Below are positions 3,944 to 50,347 of a stretch of 57,645 nucleotides of DNA, in pieces. Both the position numbers and the translations under genes were made by a program. How positions within the stretch are numbered: position 1 is the stretch's first letter; the number at the start of each line of letters is the position of its first letter. This stretch comes from a virus: the IMG/VR virus record IMGVR_UViG_3300030451_004451. One strand, written 5' to 3'. A model generated the notes under the pieces. It searched no databases, was not told the origin of the DNA, and saw only the letters and a program-made list of their open reading frames with translations.

Positions 3944-4789
3944 CTAATCATGACAAAAGCAGGTGTCAGTAGCCTGGTCAAATTCAAATAGTTCTAATTG
4001 ATCCTTGGTGTTTTGTAATAACTTAGCGTAGCTTGGTCTGTCCTTACGAAAGTATGCAGCACGATCATTACCAGTGCCCATCTTTTTACTTTCTTGAGCG
4101 ATCCACCAATCAGCTAATTTAGGATCTGACTTCATTATATTTCTTATTGTGTTAGCGCCTTTTAAAAAACATAGATCACAATTACCTTGTGGTGTTTTAC
4201 CACCAATGTTTGGTAAACGTAAATCAAAATCGTTGTCTTTCCAAAAGTCAAAAACATCTTGAACTGTTTTCCGTGCGTCGTGTAGCGGTGCTTCTGTTTC
4301 CCATCTTTCTTTTTTATTACGATTAGACAGTCTAGCTACCCTATGTGGCTCATCATATCTAAGACCAACATAAGACATCCAATGTTCAAAACCCAAATGA
4401 AACATGCAATAGGCACGCATAGTTTTGATCTTTAAATAAGACGTGCAATATCTTGTAACAGGGTTAGGTAAAAATCTTTTACTATCTATTAATTTTTCGT
4501 AAGGTTCACCATCTCTTGATGCTGTTTCATAATCAACAATTTTTAAATGATTTTCTGATTCATTATCCCACTCCATCCATACGATAGGAACGTTCCATTT
4601 TGTCGAGCAATCATGTACAAAATCAAGTGTTTGTGGCATTTCTTTTCCGGTGTTAGCAAAACAAACTGGTAAGTCGTCCGGCAGCTTGTTATCAAAAGCA
4701 TCTAATATCTTTCGTAACATATAACCTGATGTTCTACCACCAGAAAAATTTATAACACCAGGTGTTTCTAGTAAAAAGGGGTCACTCAT
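3944..4789 (-). CDS. PAPS reductase / PP-loop ATP-pyrophosphatase family protein
   Basis: N-terminal VINFSGGRTSGYML (SGGxxS PP-loop), YCTSYLKIK core, C-terminal Cys cluster (CDLCFLK ... DTCFCHD), as in phage PAPS-reductase-like/DndC-like proteins. Confidence 0.75.
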   Translation of the reverse strand: MSDPFLLETPGVINFSGGRTSGYMLRKILDAFDNKLPDDLPVCFANTGKEMPQTLDFVHDCSTKWNVPIVWMEWDNESENHLKIVDYETASRDGEPYEKLIDSKRFLPNPVTRYCTSYLKIKTMRAYCMFHLGFEHWMSYVGLRYDEPHRVARLSNRNKKERWETEAPLHDARKTVQDVFDFWKDNDFDLRLPNIGGKTPQGNCDLCFLKGANTIRNIMKSDPKLADWWIAQESKKMGTGNDRAAYFRKDRPSYAKLLQNTKDQLELFEFDQATDTCFCHD

Positions 4790-40396: not shown

Positions 40397-40855
40397 TTAT
40401 TGCCATGGTATATACCTCGTCTTTCCTTTCGCATCTTTATATGCTTTTAAAAATTGTTTACGACACTCATCAGTGTATGATACATGCACCCATCCACTTT
40501 GTGGGTCTGAAGGTTTATAAAACTCAAGTATTAACTGATCATACTTAATATTCGCATGAATCCAACTAGCGAGTGTTTTGTTATCTAAACCAAATATTTC
40601 TATGTCCGCAGCCTCACCTTTACAATGTTGAGATTTGCCTGAAGAGCCAATAGCTTCACTCAAACGAGCTGATCTAAAACCAGAAGAAATTATTACTGGC
40701 TTTTCGAATTTATTACGTATGGGTTGAAGAACATTCTCGCATAGTTTAGTTAATGCCAAAACCTGATTTTGATTTGGTTTGTTTTCAAACCCCAGACGTG
40801 TTGCTGTCTGTGACTTCGTTAACTCTGCTAGTGAAAAATTTTCTGTAAGTTGCAT
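40397..40855 (-). CDS. Peptidase_M15 (zinc D-Ala-D-Ala carboxypeptidase-like) endolysin
   Basis: FSLAELTKS..., ISSGFRS, SQHCKGEAADI (H-x6-D) and WVHVSY second His. Confidence 0.85.
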   Translation of the reverse strand: MQLTENFSLAELTKSQTATRLGFENKPNQNQVLALTKLCENVLQPIRNKFEKPVIISSGFRSARLSEAIGSSGKSQHCKGEAADIEIFGLDNKTLASWIHANIKYDQLILEFYKPSDPQSGWVHVSYTDECRKQFLKAYKDAKGKTRYIPWQ

Positions 40856-42541: not shown

Positions 42542-43453
42542 CTATGCAGCGCCAGGTGAACCAAAAATACCTCTTGGATCAGAGAAACCAAAAGAATATC
42601 TTTCTCTTGCTTTAAATCTGACGTTACCAGTATCAAAGTCACCTTCAATTGCAGTTTTGATTGGGCTTCTAACAAACTGTTTAAGTCCATTAGGAGCATC
42701 AGTCATGATGAAGAAAGCATCAGTATCTGTTAGATAATGATTAACTCTATAACCTTGTGGGATCATGCCCATAGAAGCCATAGCGTTGATGTCATTATCA
42801 GCAGTACCAACTCTCTGAGGTGATCTTAAAATTCTTTCAGCAGTAAACTGAAGTTCTTTTGGAATAATCAGTTTAACACCTTGCATTGCAATTTTAAGTC
42901 CTCTTTCATCAACGAAAGCAGCAATATCAATTAATGATTGCTCTAGTGATGTTTCAGATAAATCGGCAGCTGTTGATAGTTCGTTTGCGAACGTACCACC
43001 AGTAGCGATTGGATGAGCAGTCGAACATAGTTCAACACCATCACCACCAGCAAAGTTAGAGTTAAACGCATTGTTAAGTACGTTTGCAGCTTTAACTTGT
43101 TTGGTGTTGGACATTGAACGAGCAAGTGCTCTTGTGTATCTTGCAGCTAATCTGTCGTACAGATTATCTTCAATTGCTTCTTCAGTAATAGCAAATGCCA
43201 TTGCGATTGTTTCATGAGTATATCTCGCAGTGAAAGATTCAGTTGCTTGGTCGAATGCGACGCCTGAACCCTCTTCTTTTACTGGAGCACTACCGAAACC
43301 GCTTAGCATTACTTCTTCTTCAAAAGCTCTATCCGATGCTTCTGCAACGAAAATTTCTGCATGTTCGTTTTCGTAACGATTATATTCTAAGCCAAAGAGA
43401 GCATTTAAACCAGGCTCTAGCTCTTTGACCAGTTGTGATCTTGAAATAGCCAT
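42542..43453 (-). CDS. major capsid protein (HK97-fold type)
   Basis: 303 aa, follows the scaffold-like gene, followed by a strong terminator. N-terminus MAISRSQLVKELEPGLNALFG and overall pattern resemble P2/Mu-type major head proteins. Confidence 0.75.
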   Translation of the reverse strand: MAISRSQLVKELEPGLNALFGLEYNRYENEHAEIFVAEASDRAFEEEVMLSGFGSAPVKEEGSGVAFDQATESFTARYTHETIAMAFAITEEAIEDNLYDRLAARYTRALARSMSNTKQVKAANVLNNAFNSNFAGGDGVELCSTAHPIATGGTFANELSTAADLSETSLEQSLIDIAAFVDERGLKIAMQGVKLIIPKELQFTAERILRSPQRVGTADNDINAMASMGMIPQGYRVNHYLTDTDAFFIMTDAPNGLKQFVRSPIKTAIEGDFDTGNVRFKARERYSFGFSDPRGIFGSPGAA

Positions 43454-45512: not shown

Positions 45513-45947
45513 TTAGAATAATGCGAGGATATCCTCGGGTTTATTAATAGTTCCTATGATCTCGTCGTCATTCAAAATGCGATGTTCACCATATTTTGTT
45601 TTAAATCGAGCGCCAGCATATCGTCCATAAACAATAAACTGTCCCTCTTTACACCAAGGTCCAGTCGGAAACTTCTCCTTATCTTTGTAACAAAGGTCAC
45701 CCATTTTGACGACAAGTCCAACGACTGTTGTCATTTGTTGAGTTTCAAGAGTTTTTTCAGTTAGATAAAGACCACCTTTTGTTTTAGCCTTAGGTTGATA
45801 AGGTCTTATCAAAAGTCTGTATCCTACTGGTTTTGGTAATAATTTAAGATATTCTTCCGTTTCTTTTGCACCCTTCGGAACTAAGGGTTCGTCGTCATCA
45901 TCTTTAGCAGGTGTGACTAACTTAGTATTAGGTTTGATCAATGTCAT
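45513..45947 (-). CDS. GroES/Cpn10-like co-chaperonin with N-terminal extension
   Basis: KPVGYRLLIRPYQPKAKTKGGLYLTEKT...VVGLVVKMGD...KEGQFIVYGRYAG...ILNDDEIIGTI parallels GroES (P..dRvlv...e.kT.gGi.l......V.avG.G...vk.GD.V.f..y.g...il.e.DIl.i). Confidence 0.55.
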   Translation of the reverse strand: MTLIKPNTKLVTPAKDDDDEPLVPKGAKETEEYLKLLPKPVGYRLLIRPYQPKAKTKGGLYLTEKTLETQQMTTVVGLVVKMGDLCYKDKEKFPTGPWCKEGQFIVYGRYAGARFKTKYGEHRILNDDEIIGTINKPEDILALF

Positions 45948-46323: not shown

Positions 46324-46446
46324 TTAAATATTTCTGACAAGTTTGTAACCCCACCTGTTTTCAGATAAGTCCCAAACCCTTTTTGTAGCAGAAGGTATTT
46401 TTACAATAAGATTGTTAAATTTAATTAATTTTTTAGTTAATAACAT
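46324..46446 (-). CDS. possible mini-ORF (40 aa)
   Basis: AGGAAAGtaatATG; MLLTKKLIKFNNLIVKIPSATKRVWDLSENRWGYKLVRNI; directly downstream of the pqqA-like ORF hairpin. Confidence 0.25.
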   Translation of the reverse strand: MLLTKKLIKFNNLIVKIPSATKRVWDLSENRWGYKLVRNI

Positions 46447-46461
46447 ATTACTTTCCTAAAT

Positions 46462-46487
46462 AGTGAGGGGACTAGGTCCCCATCACT
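46462..46487 (-). other. GC-rich stem-loop abutting the stop codon of the PqqA-like ORF
   Basis: agtgaggggac-tag-gtcccc(a)tcact: 11-bp stem with one bulge; no T-run on the sense strand, so more likely an attenuator or RNA-stability element than a full terminator. Confidence 0.5.
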
Positions 46488-46562
46488 TTATTTTTCAGCA
46501 CAGGCATAACTGTTAATCTCAAGACCAACAGAAATTTCTGTAATTACAGGTTTAGACCACAT
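46488..46562 (-). CDS. pqqA: PqqA-like peptide (24 aa), not in ORF track
   Basis: AGGAGataattATG; MWSKPVITEISVGLEINSYACAEK. Length, the W-x-K-P start and the G-x-E-I-x-x-Y core (Glu and Tyr three residues apart) match PQQ precursor peptides. Confidence 0.65.
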   Translation of the reverse strand: MWSKPVITEISVGLEINSYACAEK

Positions 46563-46627
46563 AATTATCTCCTAAAATTAAAGTGCTGGTTGTCCTCGTG
46601 ACCGCAGTCCACTAAACATATTTTAAT

Positions 46628-46996
46628 CTATTTTTTGAACTTGGCAATACTCTTCAACCCGAATGATCCTGCAATCGAAGCTAAAATTCCCCAGCTGAGC
46701 CATTCAGGACAATCGTTTTTTAGAAAAACAAATCCTTCTTTCATGTACGGTTGCAAAGAAGGTACGAAGGAGGCAAAAATTATGGCTATGAACGCAAGGG
46801 TCCAGGCTTCGTCTTTCCAGGAATCCGCTGCAGCATCTGCTTGTTTTTCGTCCCAAGTTCCTTCTTTCTCTATTCTTGTCTTAGTTGCTTCTAGTTTAGT
46901 TAACTCAACTTTTGATTTAAGTTCAGCTTTTTTTTGACGTCCTTCGATCCAAGTTGAAGCTAACTTGGCGACTGGACCTAATATGGCTTGAAACAT
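46628..46996 (-). CDS. holin-like membrane protein (3TM GTA-holin-like by eye)
   Basis: 122 aa: amphipathic charged N-terminal half, SWKDEAW, then TM segments TLAFIAIIFASFV and WLSWGILASIAGSFG. Confidence 0.4.
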   Translation of the reverse strand: MFQAILGPVAKLASTWIEGRQKKAELKSKVELTKLEATKTRIEKEGTWDEKQADAAADSWKDEAWTLAFIAIIFASFVPSLQPYMKEGFVFLKNDCPEWLSWGILASIAGSFGLKSIAKFKK

Positions 46997-46998
46997 AT

Positions 46999-47598
46999 CT
47001 ACTCCTTTTTGTAAATAATTTTATTGTCGCCTTCTTCAGCAACATTAAAATTATAAGTCTTCAGGAGCATATCCACAATACCCATCTTAAGGCGTGTGTA
47101 ATCATCTATAATTATTAAACCCTCTTCATCTATACGTGGAATAAAAAACTTTAATTCTTCTAAGACAGCATGTGTTGTATGTGGTCCATCAAGGTGAACA
47201 ACTTTGTATAAGCCATATATCATACAGTTACCATTAATTGAGAACTGATGCCCGTCTTTCATGGTTTCAAAATAATACTCATCTGTCATGTGATAAAAAT
47301 CAAACTCTTGATAGTTTTGATAAAAATAAGAAACAATTCTTTGTTTCATGTCTTCTGTATAATCAGCACTGGTCTCTTTCTCATCATCAGTATGCTGATA
47401 ACTTAAATTATTGTACGGATCAACAGCAACATGCTTATAAAGGGGTGGTTTATGATCTCTAACGGCATCCATAATAATCTTGGAACCTAAACCTTCTCTT
47501 AGACCAATCTCACAAGTCAAAGTGACTCTATCTATTTTAAGTTTACCTATGTGTTTAGTGAGTAAATGGTATTCTGAGGAGTCGCCTTTTATAATCAT
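46999..47598 (-). CDS. class I SAM-dependent methyltransferase-like protein
   Basis: CEIGLREGLGS (motif I-like) and VVHLDGPHTTHAVLEELKFFIPRIDEEGLIIIDDY resemble the Methyltransf_24 pattern IDGDH....V..EL......L..GG.I..DD. Confidence 0.4.
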   Translation of the reverse strand: MIIKGDSSEYHLLTKHIGKLKIDRVTLTCEIGLREGLGSKIIMDAVRDHKPPLYKHVAVDPYNNLSYQHTDDEKETSADYTEDMKQRIVSYFYQNYQEFDFYHMTDEYYFETMKDGHQFSINGNCMIYGLYKVVHLDGPHTTHAVLEELKFFIPRIDEEGLIIIDDYTRLKMGIVDMLLKTYNFNVAEEGDNKIIYKKE

Positions 47599-47694: not shown

Positions 47695-48042
47695 TTATCT
47701 GACACCTACAAACTTTTTACCTTTGACTTGAATATCAGAAATTCCTTTGATATCACTCTTGACTCCGTTTTCTCGGTACGGACAGCCAGCAAACTCACCT
47801 GTTTTCATCCCCTGAGGTTGTGGTCCTTTTTCTGGAGGAGGTCCATACTCTTGTCCTAAGTAATCGTAAGCTTGTGCAACTTGTTTTTGTTTTTCTAGCT
47901 TTTTAGCTGCCTGTTTTCTTCTTTTTTCGTTTTCAGTTGCTAACTTAACTTTAATAGCTGTAGGGAAAACAACAGAATCTAAAAGTTTCACCATATTCAT
48001 ATAACCGCCTATGTTAAGTTTTTTCATTTTTATTTTCCTCAT
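47695..48042 (-). CDS. hypothetical protein
   Basis: 115-aa basic ORF after the portal; N-terminus has several Met (true start may be 48027); contains KKLNIGGY. Confidence 0.5.
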   Translation of the reverse strand: MRKIKMKKLNIGGYMNMVKLLDSVVFPTAIKVKLATENEKRRKQAAKKLEKQKQVAQAYDYLGQEYGPPPEKGPQPQGMKTGEFAGCPYRENGVKSDIKGISDIQVKGKKFVGVR

Positions 48043-50347
48043 TTTCTATTTTTCTTTCAGTTAGGTCTAGTTTCTCATCAGCTACTCTAATTCTTTCTTG
48101 TGATGCAACTTCAGCATCCTCTCTTTTCATTTTATCTAAATCAATACGTTGTTCAAACTCATACAGTTTTCTTTGTTGATCTTGTTGAGTTTCAGCTGCT
48201 TTTCTTTGCATATCCATAGCTTTTAAATCTAATTCTCTTGATTTCAACGCAACAAGTGGATCTTGACTACCGCCTTCAGCATCAACTAATTCTTTTGTTA
48301 AAGCTGCAATTTGTAGAGCAATTAAAGATTCTGTTTCCATTTGGAAAGCTTCCATGTTCTCCTCTTTTAGCTTTTGTAAGTTTTCATCAGCCATGACCAT
48401 AGCCATTACAACAGCGCGTGCTTTGTATGATATATGCTCAGATATATGTCCTTGTAATAAAGCATATACCATCGGGTTAGCCTGCACCATTCTTGACTTT
48501 ATAAAGTTAGCATGAGCTAAAATATGAGCATCATGGTTTTGAAATGGAAAAGCTCTTGGCACTTTCATCTGAAGTGCCTCTAAATTCTCGATAGCCGGGT
48601 CCTTTGGTGTTGGTGCAGGTTCCGGTTTTAACAAAGTATCAATTTGTTTGGTTCCAAGTGCTTCATATACACGTCTATAAGCCTCTCTCATGTCATGCAT
48701 CTGTGGATTTGACTGAGCAATCTGTAATTGTTGACTAGCGAGTGTAATTCTTTGTGACAAAGAGAAAACATTAGGGTCTGCAACAGGAATTACATCAACT
48801 TCATCAGTAAAATCAGCTAATTTTACAAGTCTATCGCCTCCATATACGGCGTAAGGGTAAATTGGAGGCAAATATGTAGCAAAAACATTATGTAAAAGCC
48901 TAAATTCTTGACGCATCGCATAATACAGACGCTTGTGAATGGCACTCATGACCCTTGAGCCACGTTCCAAGAGAGCTAAAGTAGTTCCGACAGCCCTATT
49001 TTGCTTATCTTCACCAATTTGCATGTCTGCAATCGCTGCAAAACGCTGTCCTGCTTGTACAACAAAGCCTAAAAGTTGAAAAAGTGTGCCACTTGGCTCT
49101 TTAAATGGTAAAATTTGAAATTGATCCTTAATGTTTCCGCCTGGTGCATCAACATCCCTAAATTCACCAGGTTGAAAAGGTTGTTCATCGTCCCTAATTC
49201 TTAATCCTCTCGATTTAAAGCCAGCTGGCAAGTTACTTAGAGTACCTGCATCCAACAATTGTCGCAATGCCGCTGTCGCAGTTTTGCTCAAACCACCAAT
49301 CATGTGTATCAGACCAAAACCGTAGAAGCCTAGTCCCGGTAAAAATTTATAATGAACAAAAAAATCTTTTCTTCTAAACAATTCATCATTAGGGGCATAG
49401 TTTCTATAGATACTTAATATTTCATGTGAGCCCTCATCAATTGTTACGATGTATGGAACTTTAACATTTTTGTCGTCACTCTCTCCAGCAAGATCCTCAG
49501 GGTCTAAATCTACATGCATTTCTAAAATATTAAACTGATAATCAGAGTCACCCTGTTTAGAAACACCTTCTAACTCTTCGTACTTGTTTTGGACATCATC
49601 GTCCATTTGAGATGGTAATATTTTAACATCTCTGTAAAAACCGCTTTTTTGTTTTTTTAGAATGTCATTCTCTGACATTTTAATTACGTGCGTTACTCTC
49701 TCTGCATCTTTTAAATCAGATGCATAATAAGGAACAATCAAATCTTCAGCAGGTACAAACTTACTTACAGCACGCTGCATAATTTCATCATAATAAACTT
49801 TTTTAAAAGCTGATCCTGCTAAAGGTAAATAAAATAAAAGTTGATCAAACTCAGGAGTGTATTCCTCCATCTGTTCCATCAACATATAATTCATAAATTC
49901 TTTTATACGTCCTGCCTGTTCTTCTCTTTGTGGATTTCTTTCACCAACAATTTGTGTGTTCACAGGACCCTCAGAAGGTAATAATTCTTTGTAAGCCTGA
50001 GCTTGAAACTGTGTTACAGATTCAGCAAGTAAAGGATGTGTTACACTAGAAGCACCTCTGAAAGGTTGTGACTCATCACTATATTTAAAACCAAGTAGAT
50101 CAAGTCCAGAGGTATACCCTTTTTCCCAATCACTTCTTGATTCTTTATCTTTTCTATAATCTGTAATTAATTGTGAAGCTAGAGAACCTAAAATTCTTTC
50201 ATCTAAATCTTCAGCAATATTTTTATAAAATTCTTGTTCTGCTTGAGCCTCTTCCGCAGCCATTTCCATTTCATCACTTGGCTCTTGAATCTCAACTTCA
50301 ACAGGTTCAAGTTCGACCTGCTGGTCTAAATTATCTTCTTCATCCAT
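48014..50347 (-). CDS. portal protein
   Basis: 777 aa in the terL-to-capsid interval; acidic N-terminus, conserved core (RGASSVTHPLLAESVTQFQAQAYKELLP...), C-terminal charged coiled coil as in large podovirus portals. Confidence 0.7.
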   Translation of the reverse strand: MDEEDNLDQQVELEPVEVEIQEPSDEMEMAAEEAQAEQEFYKNIAEDLDERILGSLASQLITDYRKDKESRSDWEKGYTSGLDLLGFKYSDESQPFRGASSVTHPLLAESVTQFQAQAYKELLPSEGPVNTQIVGERNPQREEQAGRIKEFMNYMLMEQMEEYTPEFDQLLFYLPLAGSAFKKVYYDEIMQRAVSKFVPAEDLIVPYYASDLKDAERVTHVIKMSENDILKKQKSGFYRDVKILPSQMDDDVQNKYEELEGVSKQGDSDYQFNILEMHVDLDPEDLAGESDDKNVKVPYIVTIDEGSHEILSIYRNYAPNDELFRRKDFFVHYKFLPGLGFYGFGLIHMIGGLSKTATAALRQLLDAGTLSNLPAGFKSRGLRIRDDEQPFQPGEFRDVDAPGGNIKDQFQILPFKEPSGTLFQLLGFVVQAGQRFAAIADMQIGEDKQNRAVGTTLALLERGSRVMSAIHKRLYYAMRQEFRLLHNVFATYLPPIYPYAVYGGDRLVKLADFTDEVDVIPVADPNVFSLSQRITLASQQLQIAQSNPQMHDMREAYRRVYEALGTKQIDTLLKPEPAPTPKDPAIENLEALQMKVPRAFPFQNHDAHILAHANFIKSRMVQANPMVYALLQGHISEHISYKARAVVMAMVMADENLQKLKEENMEAFQMETESLIALQIAALTKELVDAEGGSQDPLVALKSRELDLKAMDMQRKAAETQQDQQRKLYEFEQRIDLDKMKREDAEVASQERIRVADEKLDLTERKIENEENKNEKT

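Follow-up and report, generated by a model that had tools for sequence, protein, structure and literature searches.

A phage-encoded orphan pqqA that may supply precursor peptide to a host pyrroloquinoline quinone pathway

The virus record IMGVR_UViG_3300030451_004451 of IMG/VR, analyzed here over its full 57,645 nucleotides (the window), codes on its minus strand for a 24-residue precursor peptide of the cofactor pyrroloquinoline quinone (PQQ). The peptide is the product of a pqqA gene that stands within a compact cassette and is accompanied by none of pqqB, pqqC, pqqD, or pqqE. An earlier reading of the same DNA, made from the letters and without database searches (the sequence-only reading), had proposed such a gene, and the minus-strand open reading frame (ORF) of 24 codons and its AGGAG Shine-Dalgarno sequence are present exactly as claimed there; the ORF is almost certainly a genuine pqqA maintained by selection. 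The explanation that accounts best for it, to which we assign a probability of roughly 0.7, is that the phage provides the substrate, and the substrate only, to a PQQ pathway of its host. The two features on which this rests are as follows.

46488 to 46562, minus strand: pqqA, with an ATG start, 24 codons, and a TAA stop; the product, MWSKPVITEISVGLEINSYACAEK, is the PQQ precursor peptide.
46569 to 46573, minus strand: Shine-Dalgarno sequence AGGAG, 6 nt 5' of the ATG; GGAG is kept in all versions of the cassette.

The peptide belongs to the PqqA family according to both of the models named as a check by the sequence-only reading, scoring 29.3 bits against Pfam PF08042 (cut-off, 21.1; E value, 8.6e-7) and 36.4 bits against the NCBIfam equivalog model TIGR02107 (cut-off, 20; E value, 3.3e-9). 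At 24 amino acids (aa) it falls within the PqqA size class of ∼20 to 30 residues, it has an E-x-x-x-Y pair in Glu15 and Tyr19, and W2 and P5 appear to provide the N-terminal W-x-x-P leader, the feature of the family that is associated with recognition by PqqD. The Glu and Tyr residues of this pair are those that PqqE cross-links through a C-C bond, forming the PQQ skeleton. The family feature that the viral copy does not share is linkage to pqqB, pqqC, pqqD, and pqqE, which is not strictly a defining one, because lone pqqA copies are also found in cells. The V6I variant of the peptide has already been named PqqA by NCBI (MAR57927.1, "PqqA [Rickettsiales bacterium]"), in a metagenome-assembled genome (MAG) contig of 58,366 bp, which is phage-sized.

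The window has the gene complement of a phage. Its large terminase (TerL) shares 74% identity with that of Pelagibacter phage HTVC023P, 62% with that of HTVC027P, and 60% with that of phage 023Pt_psg01, and it codes for a portal, a major head protein, a GroES-like protein, an M15 endolysin, a family-A DNA polymerase, a UvrD-like helicase, a primase-like protein, and an SNF2 helicase; the TerL identity and this gene set together indicate the genome of an HTVC023P-type marine podophage. The GC content is 35%, and the window contains no tRNA genes. The pqqA gene is located in the block of structural genes, between the portal (48014 to 50347) and head (42542 to 43453) genes and on the same strand. 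It is a host-type metabolic gene inside a bona fide phage genome (with TerL, portal, major head protein, endolysin, and DNA polymerase) and is selectively maintained across related phages, as is expected of an auxiliary metabolic gene (AMG).

Relatives of the locus were fetched with the adjacent gene, coding for a 122-aa protein, as an anchor, giving 80 related IMG/VR loci. The same ORF is present intact at the same place in 23 of them, and its variation is of the kind that the sequence-only reading had set as a test: eight nucleotide haplotypes include 10 synonymous codon variants and one conservative replacement, V6I, which is the sole amino acid change. Such almost exclusively synonymous change across 23 related loci places the ORF far beyond chance and shows strong purifying selection, and the peptide remains at least 96% identical where the anchor gene falls to 75% amino acid identity. 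Comparison with the closest cellular genes extends this further back. The 17-residue C-terminal cores of the phage and cellular peptides (TEISVGLEINSYACAEK and SEISVGLEINSYACAEK, respectively) are the same at 16 of 17 positions, and the 51 nt that encode them are just 67 to 82% identical, which argues that pqqA has been kept under purifying selection for a long time and is not a recent capture.

The gene is an orphan, as the sequence-only reading had held for the whole 57.6-kb genome. With PqqB, PqqC, PqqD, and PqqE probes first verified as equivalogs, tblastn gave no match in the window and none in any of 200 viral loci. Family scans (Pfam or PHROGs) covered ∼50 of the window ORFs of at least 68 aa, and in these there is no radical S-adenosylmethionine (radical-SAM) domain, no metallo-beta-lactamase-type PqqB, no PqqC, and no PqqD/RRE domain. 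An ORF at 40397 to 40855 that is common to many pqqA contigs was considered as a PQQ-related partner and rejected, as it codes for a Peptidase_M15 endolysin. Family scans of the larger ORFs found no methanol dehydrogenase in the window, unlike the Baikal phages discussed below.

Orphan viral pqqA genes are widespread and occur across many phage lineages. A degenerate pattern for the family core matches at least 120 viral stretches and yields 119 short PqqA-like ORFs, none of them inside a larger gene, and a scan with the core of the alphaproteobacterial type (alpha-type) also gives at least 120 viral matches. With the anchor-derived loci included, there are at least 247 viral cassettes, at least 145 of them alpha-type with 75 distinct peptides. 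Among the matches listed, all 124 distinct viral peptides pass TIGR02107 and are invariant at W2, P5, G13, E15, and Y19, and the VGLEIN[SC]Y.CAE core is invariant in the 145 alpha-type cassettes. The number of independent acquisitions is not given by single-linkage clustering of the flanks, which is too coarse for that purpose and puts 208 of the 247 cassettes into one component via shared structural genes.

Peptides of the methylotroph type match 12 GenBank phage records, nine of which are of phages isolated on Methylophilales or Methylophilaceae hosts: Venkman (MT375522), P19250A (KX815270), MEP301 (MW452941), MEP401/402 (OP830906/7), and four Melnitz isolates (MZ577095-98). These nine span sipho-, podo-, and myoviruses, and in each matched cultured-phage record the ORF is either unannotated or listed as a hypothetical protein. 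In Venkman the ORF (MWTKPSATEMRFGFEVTMYVMNK; L424, 2501 to 2572) is situated in an intergenic gap, antisense to its neighbors, and is followed by a GC hairpin. Alpha-type queries match none of 50,697 phage records, and HTVC023P and HTVC027P, both isolated on the SAR11 Ia strain HTCC1062, are therefore without the gene.

Two observations on the viral contigs are of note. Nine of them (L103, L109, L115, L133, L137, L143, L174, L179, and L194) have major head proteins 43 to 64% identical to that of the window and mostly carry methylotroph-type pqqA, L194 having the alpha type; with both types on related podophage backbones, such phages may infect both methylotrophic Methylophilaceae and Alphaproteobacteria. 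Two other contigs, L208 (NZMJ01000006.1, "Maricaulis sp. IN14") and L274 (PANU01000007.1, "Flavobacteriaceae SAT25"), are phage contigs mis-binned into bacterial MAGs. The portal, GroES-like, and neighboring genes of L208 share 68 to 94% identity with those of the window, and L274 has a DNA polymerase and a ribonucleotide-reductase-like gene beside its pqqA cassette.

The type of peptide follows the class of the host, in line with the earlier proposal that the ORF constrains the host to a PQQ-making lineage. The two commonest methylotroph-type viral peptides (among the matches listed) are 100% identical to PqqA of Methylophilaceae (Ca. Methylopumilus, Methylotenera, and Methylophilus), and an ORF of this kind is present in cultured phages of PQQ-dependent Methylophilales. 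For the alpha type, the core pattern has at least 120 matches in species-representative genomes, almost all of them in Alphaproteobacteria, so the likeness to alphaproteobacterial PqqA noted in the sequence-only reading is confirmed by the genome scan. The closest cellular form among the matches listed is MAWTKP[M/T/I]ISEISVGLEINSYACAEK, which is present in low-GC (26 to 36%) marine single amplified genomes and MAGs labeled "Alphaproteobacteria," "Rickettsiales" (MED657), and "Pelagibacteraceae" (TMED13).

In this closest lineage, pqqA is positioned 68 to 112 nt 5' of pqqB-C-D-E at 12 of 25 loci (among the matches listed), the rest being lone copies. Its genomes have one operon-linked pqqA together with one to three dispersed lone copies coding for nearly the same peptide, as is seen in AG-404-M02 (L209 and L320), MED657 (L215, L252, L309, and L314), LRMED-288 (L255, L266, and L301), and TMED13 (L234 and L312). 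Genes for a PQQ methanol/ethanol-family dehydrogenase (TIGR03075, 666 bits), a MoxJ-like protein, a cytochrome c related to methanol oxidation genes, a pseudoazurin, and an ABC transporter border the pqq operon and form an XoxF-like cluster around pqqABCDE (L320, 4433 to 7946; L223, 533 to 3144 and 6628 to 7059). The PqqE of the lineage falls in a cluster of 1,273 member sequences that includes Tara data. We predict that the window phage has its host among low-GC marine Alphaproteobacteria, in an organism that possesses pqqBCDE together with a dehydrogenase cluster of the methanol/ethanol family (XoxF-like). An uncultured alphaproteobacterial group, "Clade X," formerly classed within Rickettsiales, has the most highly expressed xoxF5 in the surface ocean (ISME J 2025, PMC11996626), and the closest cellular lineage is possibly this clade. 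SAR11 Ia strains are without a classical PQQ methanol dehydrogenase (PMC3160333), and the peptide suggests that this HTVC023P-type branch infects PQQ-producing, methanol/ethanol-dehydrogenase-bearing marine Alphaproteobacteria, not the SAR11 Ia strains of the type phages.

The organization of the locus around pqqA is as follows.

46455 to 46627, minus strand: whole pqqA cassette, ∼170 bp, a moron-like insert between a membrane-protein gene and the next small ORF.
46582 to 46613, minus strand: 5' leader hairpin, 32 nt, 5' of the Shine-Dalgarno sequence and ending 20 nt before the ATG.
46462 to 46487, minus strand: 3' GC-rich hairpin, 26 nt, abutting the stop codon (AGUGA-U-GGGGAC CUA GUCCCC UCACU).
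46620 to 46647, minus strand: sigma-70-like site TTGCCA-16-TAAAAT (10/12 match), a candidate cassette promoter.
46628 to 46996, minus strand: upstream neighbor, coding for the 122-aa protein (phrog_2524, function unknown) used as the anchor for relatives, with no PQQ role.
46324 to 46446, minus strand: downstream neighbor, a conserved 40-aa ORF (MLLTKK...) found in relatives with and without the cassette.

The cassette is ordered leader hairpin, Shine-Dalgarno sequence, ORF, and 3' GC hairpin, and its upstream neighbor is the membrane-protein gene. In close relatives whose neighbor gene is 78 to 94% identical (L011 and L017-L023), the flanking genes are joined directly and the cassette is missing, which marks the pqqA unit as a discrete insert. 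More distant relatives have a lysozyme-like gene at the cassette position, and the pqqA-positive loci have three different downstream contexts. In L039 and L060, a tRNA-like sequence (GGTTCGAATCCCC) followed by a terminator-like hairpin is located at the cassette position, ∼100 to 230 nt 3' of the phrog_2524 homologue, and these inserts suggest that the junction is a hot spot for small insertions.

The 3' hairpin, which the sequence-only reading had placed beside the stop codon, is real, with 5 + 6 bp, one bulged U, and a predicted energy of −15.7 kcal/mol, and relatives have compensatory variants of its stem (GGGGAC/GUCCCC versus GGGAGC/GCUCCC). The accompanying claim, that a hairpin after pqqA is typical of pqq operons and sets the precursor excess there, holds only in part: in the 45 nt that follow the stop codon, 49 to 62% of viral cassettes have a hairpin at least as stable as −10 kcal/mol, but only ∼30% of low-GC cellular pqqA copies do, compared with 6% of random 45-mers from the same contigs. 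An intrinsic-terminator scan did not call the window hairpin, from which a U-run is absent, and the hairpin is probably an mRNA 3'-end stabilizer or a partial terminator. At the other end of the cassette, the candidate −10 hexamer closely follows the stop codon of the neighboring gene, at a distance of 6 nt from the leader stem, and it would put the start of transcription at the foot of that stem. A TAAAAT/TAGAAT/TATAAT-like hexamer is found 5 to 10 nt 5' of the stem in most, not all, of the distinct versions, and in a genome of 35% GC the sigma-70-like site is only suggestive of a cassette promoter.

The leader hairpin, upstream of the Shine-Dalgarno sequence, had no place in the sequence-only reading and is the least expected part of the locus. 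Its structure is A-GUG-[GA]-CUG-[C]-G-GUC-loop-GAC-[AA]-C-CAG-CAC-U, with 11 bp broken by invariant bulges. In a set of 12 distinct versions (A1), 100% of cells are paired and four pairs are changed on both sides, values reached by 0 of 500 shuffles; slid controls are 24 to 59% paired, and RNAalifold independently gives the same helices. When newly fetched loci (L321-L420) were searched with a covariance model derived from A1, 32 more instances came to light, 25 of them distinct (A2). In the A2 alignment, which was fitted to the covariance model and is hence biased toward structure, pairing extends to 98.5% of cells, and double changes are seen at 7 of 11 pairs; despite that bias, the slid controls (24 to 54%) and the new pair types (U-A to C-G, G-C to A-U, and C-G to U-A) are not easily explained in another way. 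Invariant features of the element are its bulged G, C, and AA and four of its G-C pairs, and the loop is free in both sequence and length (3, 4, 5, or 7 nt).

Instances of the leader are present in the window, L090, L094, L096, L152, L181, and L274, in addition to the 32 in L321-L420, and they are always located 19 to 40 nt 5' of an alpha-type phage pqqA. They accompany at least seven peptide subtypes and different phage backbones, including that of L274. The leader is missing, by a regular-expression search, from 86 of the 145 alpha-type viral cassettes (among the matches listed), the covariance model has no match on the methylotroph-type loci among those searched, and no leader is found beside cellular pqqA at 99 loci. 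Rfam 15 gives no gathering-level match in the window; near the cassette there are only chance-level matches (E value, ≥3), none of them on the leader. The element is thus proposed as a candidate new RNA motif, specific to phage cassettes.

Several other interpretations of the leader were rejected. Pairing of its CAGCAC with GUGCUG at the 3' end of the ORF, as in the minimum free energy fold of the single sequence, is broken in L090, L094, and L152, where one side is changed without compensation. A mini-ORF or leader peptide running through the block is inconsistent with loop lengths of 3, 4, 5, and 7 nt, as these change the reading frame between flanks of constant sequence. The single copy of the leader in the 57.6-kb window does not agree with a promoter or regulatory site that is repeated along the phage genome, and its absence beside the 99 cellular loci does not agree with a captured host 5' untranslated region, the sole "genome" matches being the mis-binned phage contigs L208 and L274.

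The favored, although unproven, role for the leader is that of a 5'-terminal stem-loop that acts with the 3' hairpin to prolong the life of the short message; it could also bind a protein or a ligand. A bolder and rather doubtful proposal is that it represents a cis-regulatory RNA not described before, moving together with alpha-type pqqA among unrelated phages, cofactor provisioning being a general and regulated phage strategy. It might then act as an operator to which an RNA-binding protein of the host or the phage attaches, or as a small ligand sensor that tunes precursor supply to the status of the PQQ pathway. The basis for a general strategy is the presence of orphan pqqA in every matched cultured Methylophilales record and in hundreds of marine and freshwater viral contigs, and if the proposal is true, regulated provisioning acts on the organisms behind most PQQ/lanthanide-dependent methanol oxidation in surface waters.

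Supply of substrate to the host pathway would work as follows. The phage, described here as lytic, would express a normal PqqA substrate from its compact, self-contained cassette, and because it encodes no processing enzymes, the peptide would be converted to PQQ only by way of host PqqD and PqqE (the Glu15-Tyr19 cross-link), host proteases, PqqB, and PqqC. One PqqA is consumed for each PQQ made, so that precursor supply depends directly on continued pqqA expression, and with a copy on the phage this supply would be maintained or increased as the expression of host genes collapses. Periplasmic PQQ-dependent dehydrogenases would be sustained in this way and would provide respiratory energy for virion production. 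The two hairpins that flank the very short message would most likely make it long-lived and abundant. This explanation is favored because the reactive residues are invariant and the commonest methylotroph-type peptides equal those of the hosts, and it is further supported by the confinement of the gene to phages with hosts that are known or inferred to use PQQ, and by the multiplication of pqqA copies within the closest cellular lineage itself; precursor supply matters to cells too, judging by their extra lone copies. Orphan status, membership of the PqqA family, purifying selection, and the tracking of host class thus all support the role that the sequence-only reading had put first.

Several points weigh against substrate supply. 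The cassette is missing from 57 of the 80 related loci, close relatives among them, and this patchy presence makes it either dispensable or host-specific. The leader part of the phage peptide, MWSKPVIT, differs at several positions from the cellular MAWTKPMIS and is one residue shorter, and recognition of the phage peptide by host PqqD is therefore assumed. The host lineage is only loosely labeled, searches with its PqqE returning just "Rickettsiales bacterium" or "Alphaproteobacteria bacterium." Sigma-70-like sites in the region are no more numerous than in shuffles, which makes for weak promoter evidence, and we infer both the expression and timing of pqqA and its effect on the PQQ level and on phage fitness. 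The location of the gene among the structural genes suggests that it is expressed late, and little time may then remain for a multistep, O2-dependent pathway; PqqA, moreover, may not be the limiting component in these hosts.

Three other explanations are considerably less probable. The first, which we regard as unlikely, is that the cassette functions outside PQQ synthesis, the peptide being a precursor for another modification system or a signaling or regulatory peptide, or the cassette being a structured RNA with an incidental ORF. A strongly conserved and phage-specific leader hairpin and the absence of a nearby partner enzyme would fit such a function. The almost purely synonymous variation of the ORF shows that selection acts on the protein, however, and all distinct viral peptides (among the matches listed) score as PqqA equivalogs; the scanned window ORFs include no radical-SAM, RRE, or other enzyme for ribosomally synthesized and posttranslationally modified peptides, and a role as RNA only is at odds with the many viral pqqA cassettes that have no leader.

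Slightly less probable still is a decoy or inhibitor, with the peptide occupying host PqqD and PqqE without yielding PQQ and thereby stopping PQQ synthesis, for instance so that radical-SAM or SAM resources are diverted or metabolism related to superinfection is blocked. A leader region unlike that of the closest cellular peptides and the orphan state of the gene could be taken this way. A decoy needs no reactive residues, yet E15, Y19, and the whole of the alpha-type core are invariant; the two commonest methylotroph-type viral peptides are the same as PqqA of the presumed hosts and can hence be only normal substrates, and additional lone copies encoding this peptide are found in cells as well. 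The least credible explanation, a neutral passenger in the form of a recently captured host fragment of no benefit to the phage, would account for a very small gene with a patchy distribution among close relatives, but the cassette has been retained where flanking genes have diverged to 75% identity, its synonymous differences from cellular copies are saturated, it occurs on phages of different backbones and morphotypes, and it has its own conserved structured leader that is not found beside cellular copies.

Three other genes of the window stand out. A GroES-like co-chaperonin gene (phrog_3188; 45513 to 45947, minus strand) is located two genes 3' of pqqA in the structural module. A protein with a PAPS-reductase domain is encoded in the early region (3944 to 4789, minus strand), and a Methyltransf_24 protein is encoded directly 5' of the neighbor gene of the cassette (46999 to 47598, minus strand); these last two may be further auxiliary or modification genes.

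Most phage AMGs encode enzymes, and here the phage would contribute only a sacrificial 24-residue substrate for a cofactor pathway. Such orphan supply points to the precursor as the first step to fail in the infected cell. The exact agreement of the two commonest methylotroph-type viral peptides (among the matches listed) with Methylophilaceae PqqA also makes viral pqqA a cheap marker for host prediction, and the OM43/LD28 methylotroph phage-host pairs are tractable systems in which to study it. In the surface ocean, PQQ/lanthanide-dependent methanol dehydrogenases rank among the dehydrogenases with the highest transcription (PMC11996626), and control of their cofactor supply by viruses would therefore bear on marine C1 and volatile-carbon turnover.

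Viral pqqA has been reported before, in 2020 and 2026, and is not unprecedented. Viral PqqA was described in methylotroph phages of Lake Baikal, alongside a viral methanol dehydrogenase (Coutinho et al. 2020, Microbiome 8:163, PMC7678222), and viral pqqA was listed among P-cycling AMGs in reservoir sediments (AEM 2026, PMC13188868). As in the window, these are phage-borne precursor genes, and they were read as AMGs supporting PQQ-dependent methanol oxidation. The earlier examples come from freshwater or sediment contigs, are of the methylotroph type, and in one case are found with methanol dehydrogenase, whereas the window is a marine HTVC023P-type podophage with a peptide of the alphaproteobacterial type, no dehydrogenase, and no other pqq gene. 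Neither report (PMC7678222 and PMC13188868) contains anything on cassette anatomy, a leader RNA, scale, or cultured phages. The main genomic study of HTVC023P-type phages (80 genomes, PMC9599517) does not mention PQQ, and the Melnitz paper mentions it solely as a medium component. An alphaproteobacterial-type pqqA in a marine HTVC023P-type podophage is new here, and pqqA in cultured Methylophilales phages, the breadth and diversity of the alpha-type viral family, and the covarying leader appear to be undescribed in the literature searched.

The viral genes share with cellular pqqA the family itself, the invariant W..P...E...G.E...Y positions, and a 17-residue core that is the same at 16 of 17 positions, and the closest cellular lineage likewise keeps dispersed lone copies. 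In Methylorubrum extorquens and Klebsiella, pqqA is known to occur in several copies and to give rise to a short, very abundant transcript. Phage pqqA differs in that it is never linked to pqqB-E (200 viral loci) and has a different N-terminal leader and a structured 5' element. The cassette resembles phage morons in being a discrete ∼170-bp insert between conserved genes with a possible promoter and a 3' hairpin, although here the promoter is only a candidate, the hairpin is without a U-run, and a covarying leader is outside the usual description of a moron. In its proposed logic the closest parallel is with cyanophage psbA (D1) and similar AMGs, which replace a rapidly consumed host component. 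Viral pqqA would likewise supply a used-up component of a host energy system and not a whole pathway, but where psbA provides a structural or enzymatic protein, pqqA would provide a 24-residue substrate that is destroyed in making a small-molecule cofactor.

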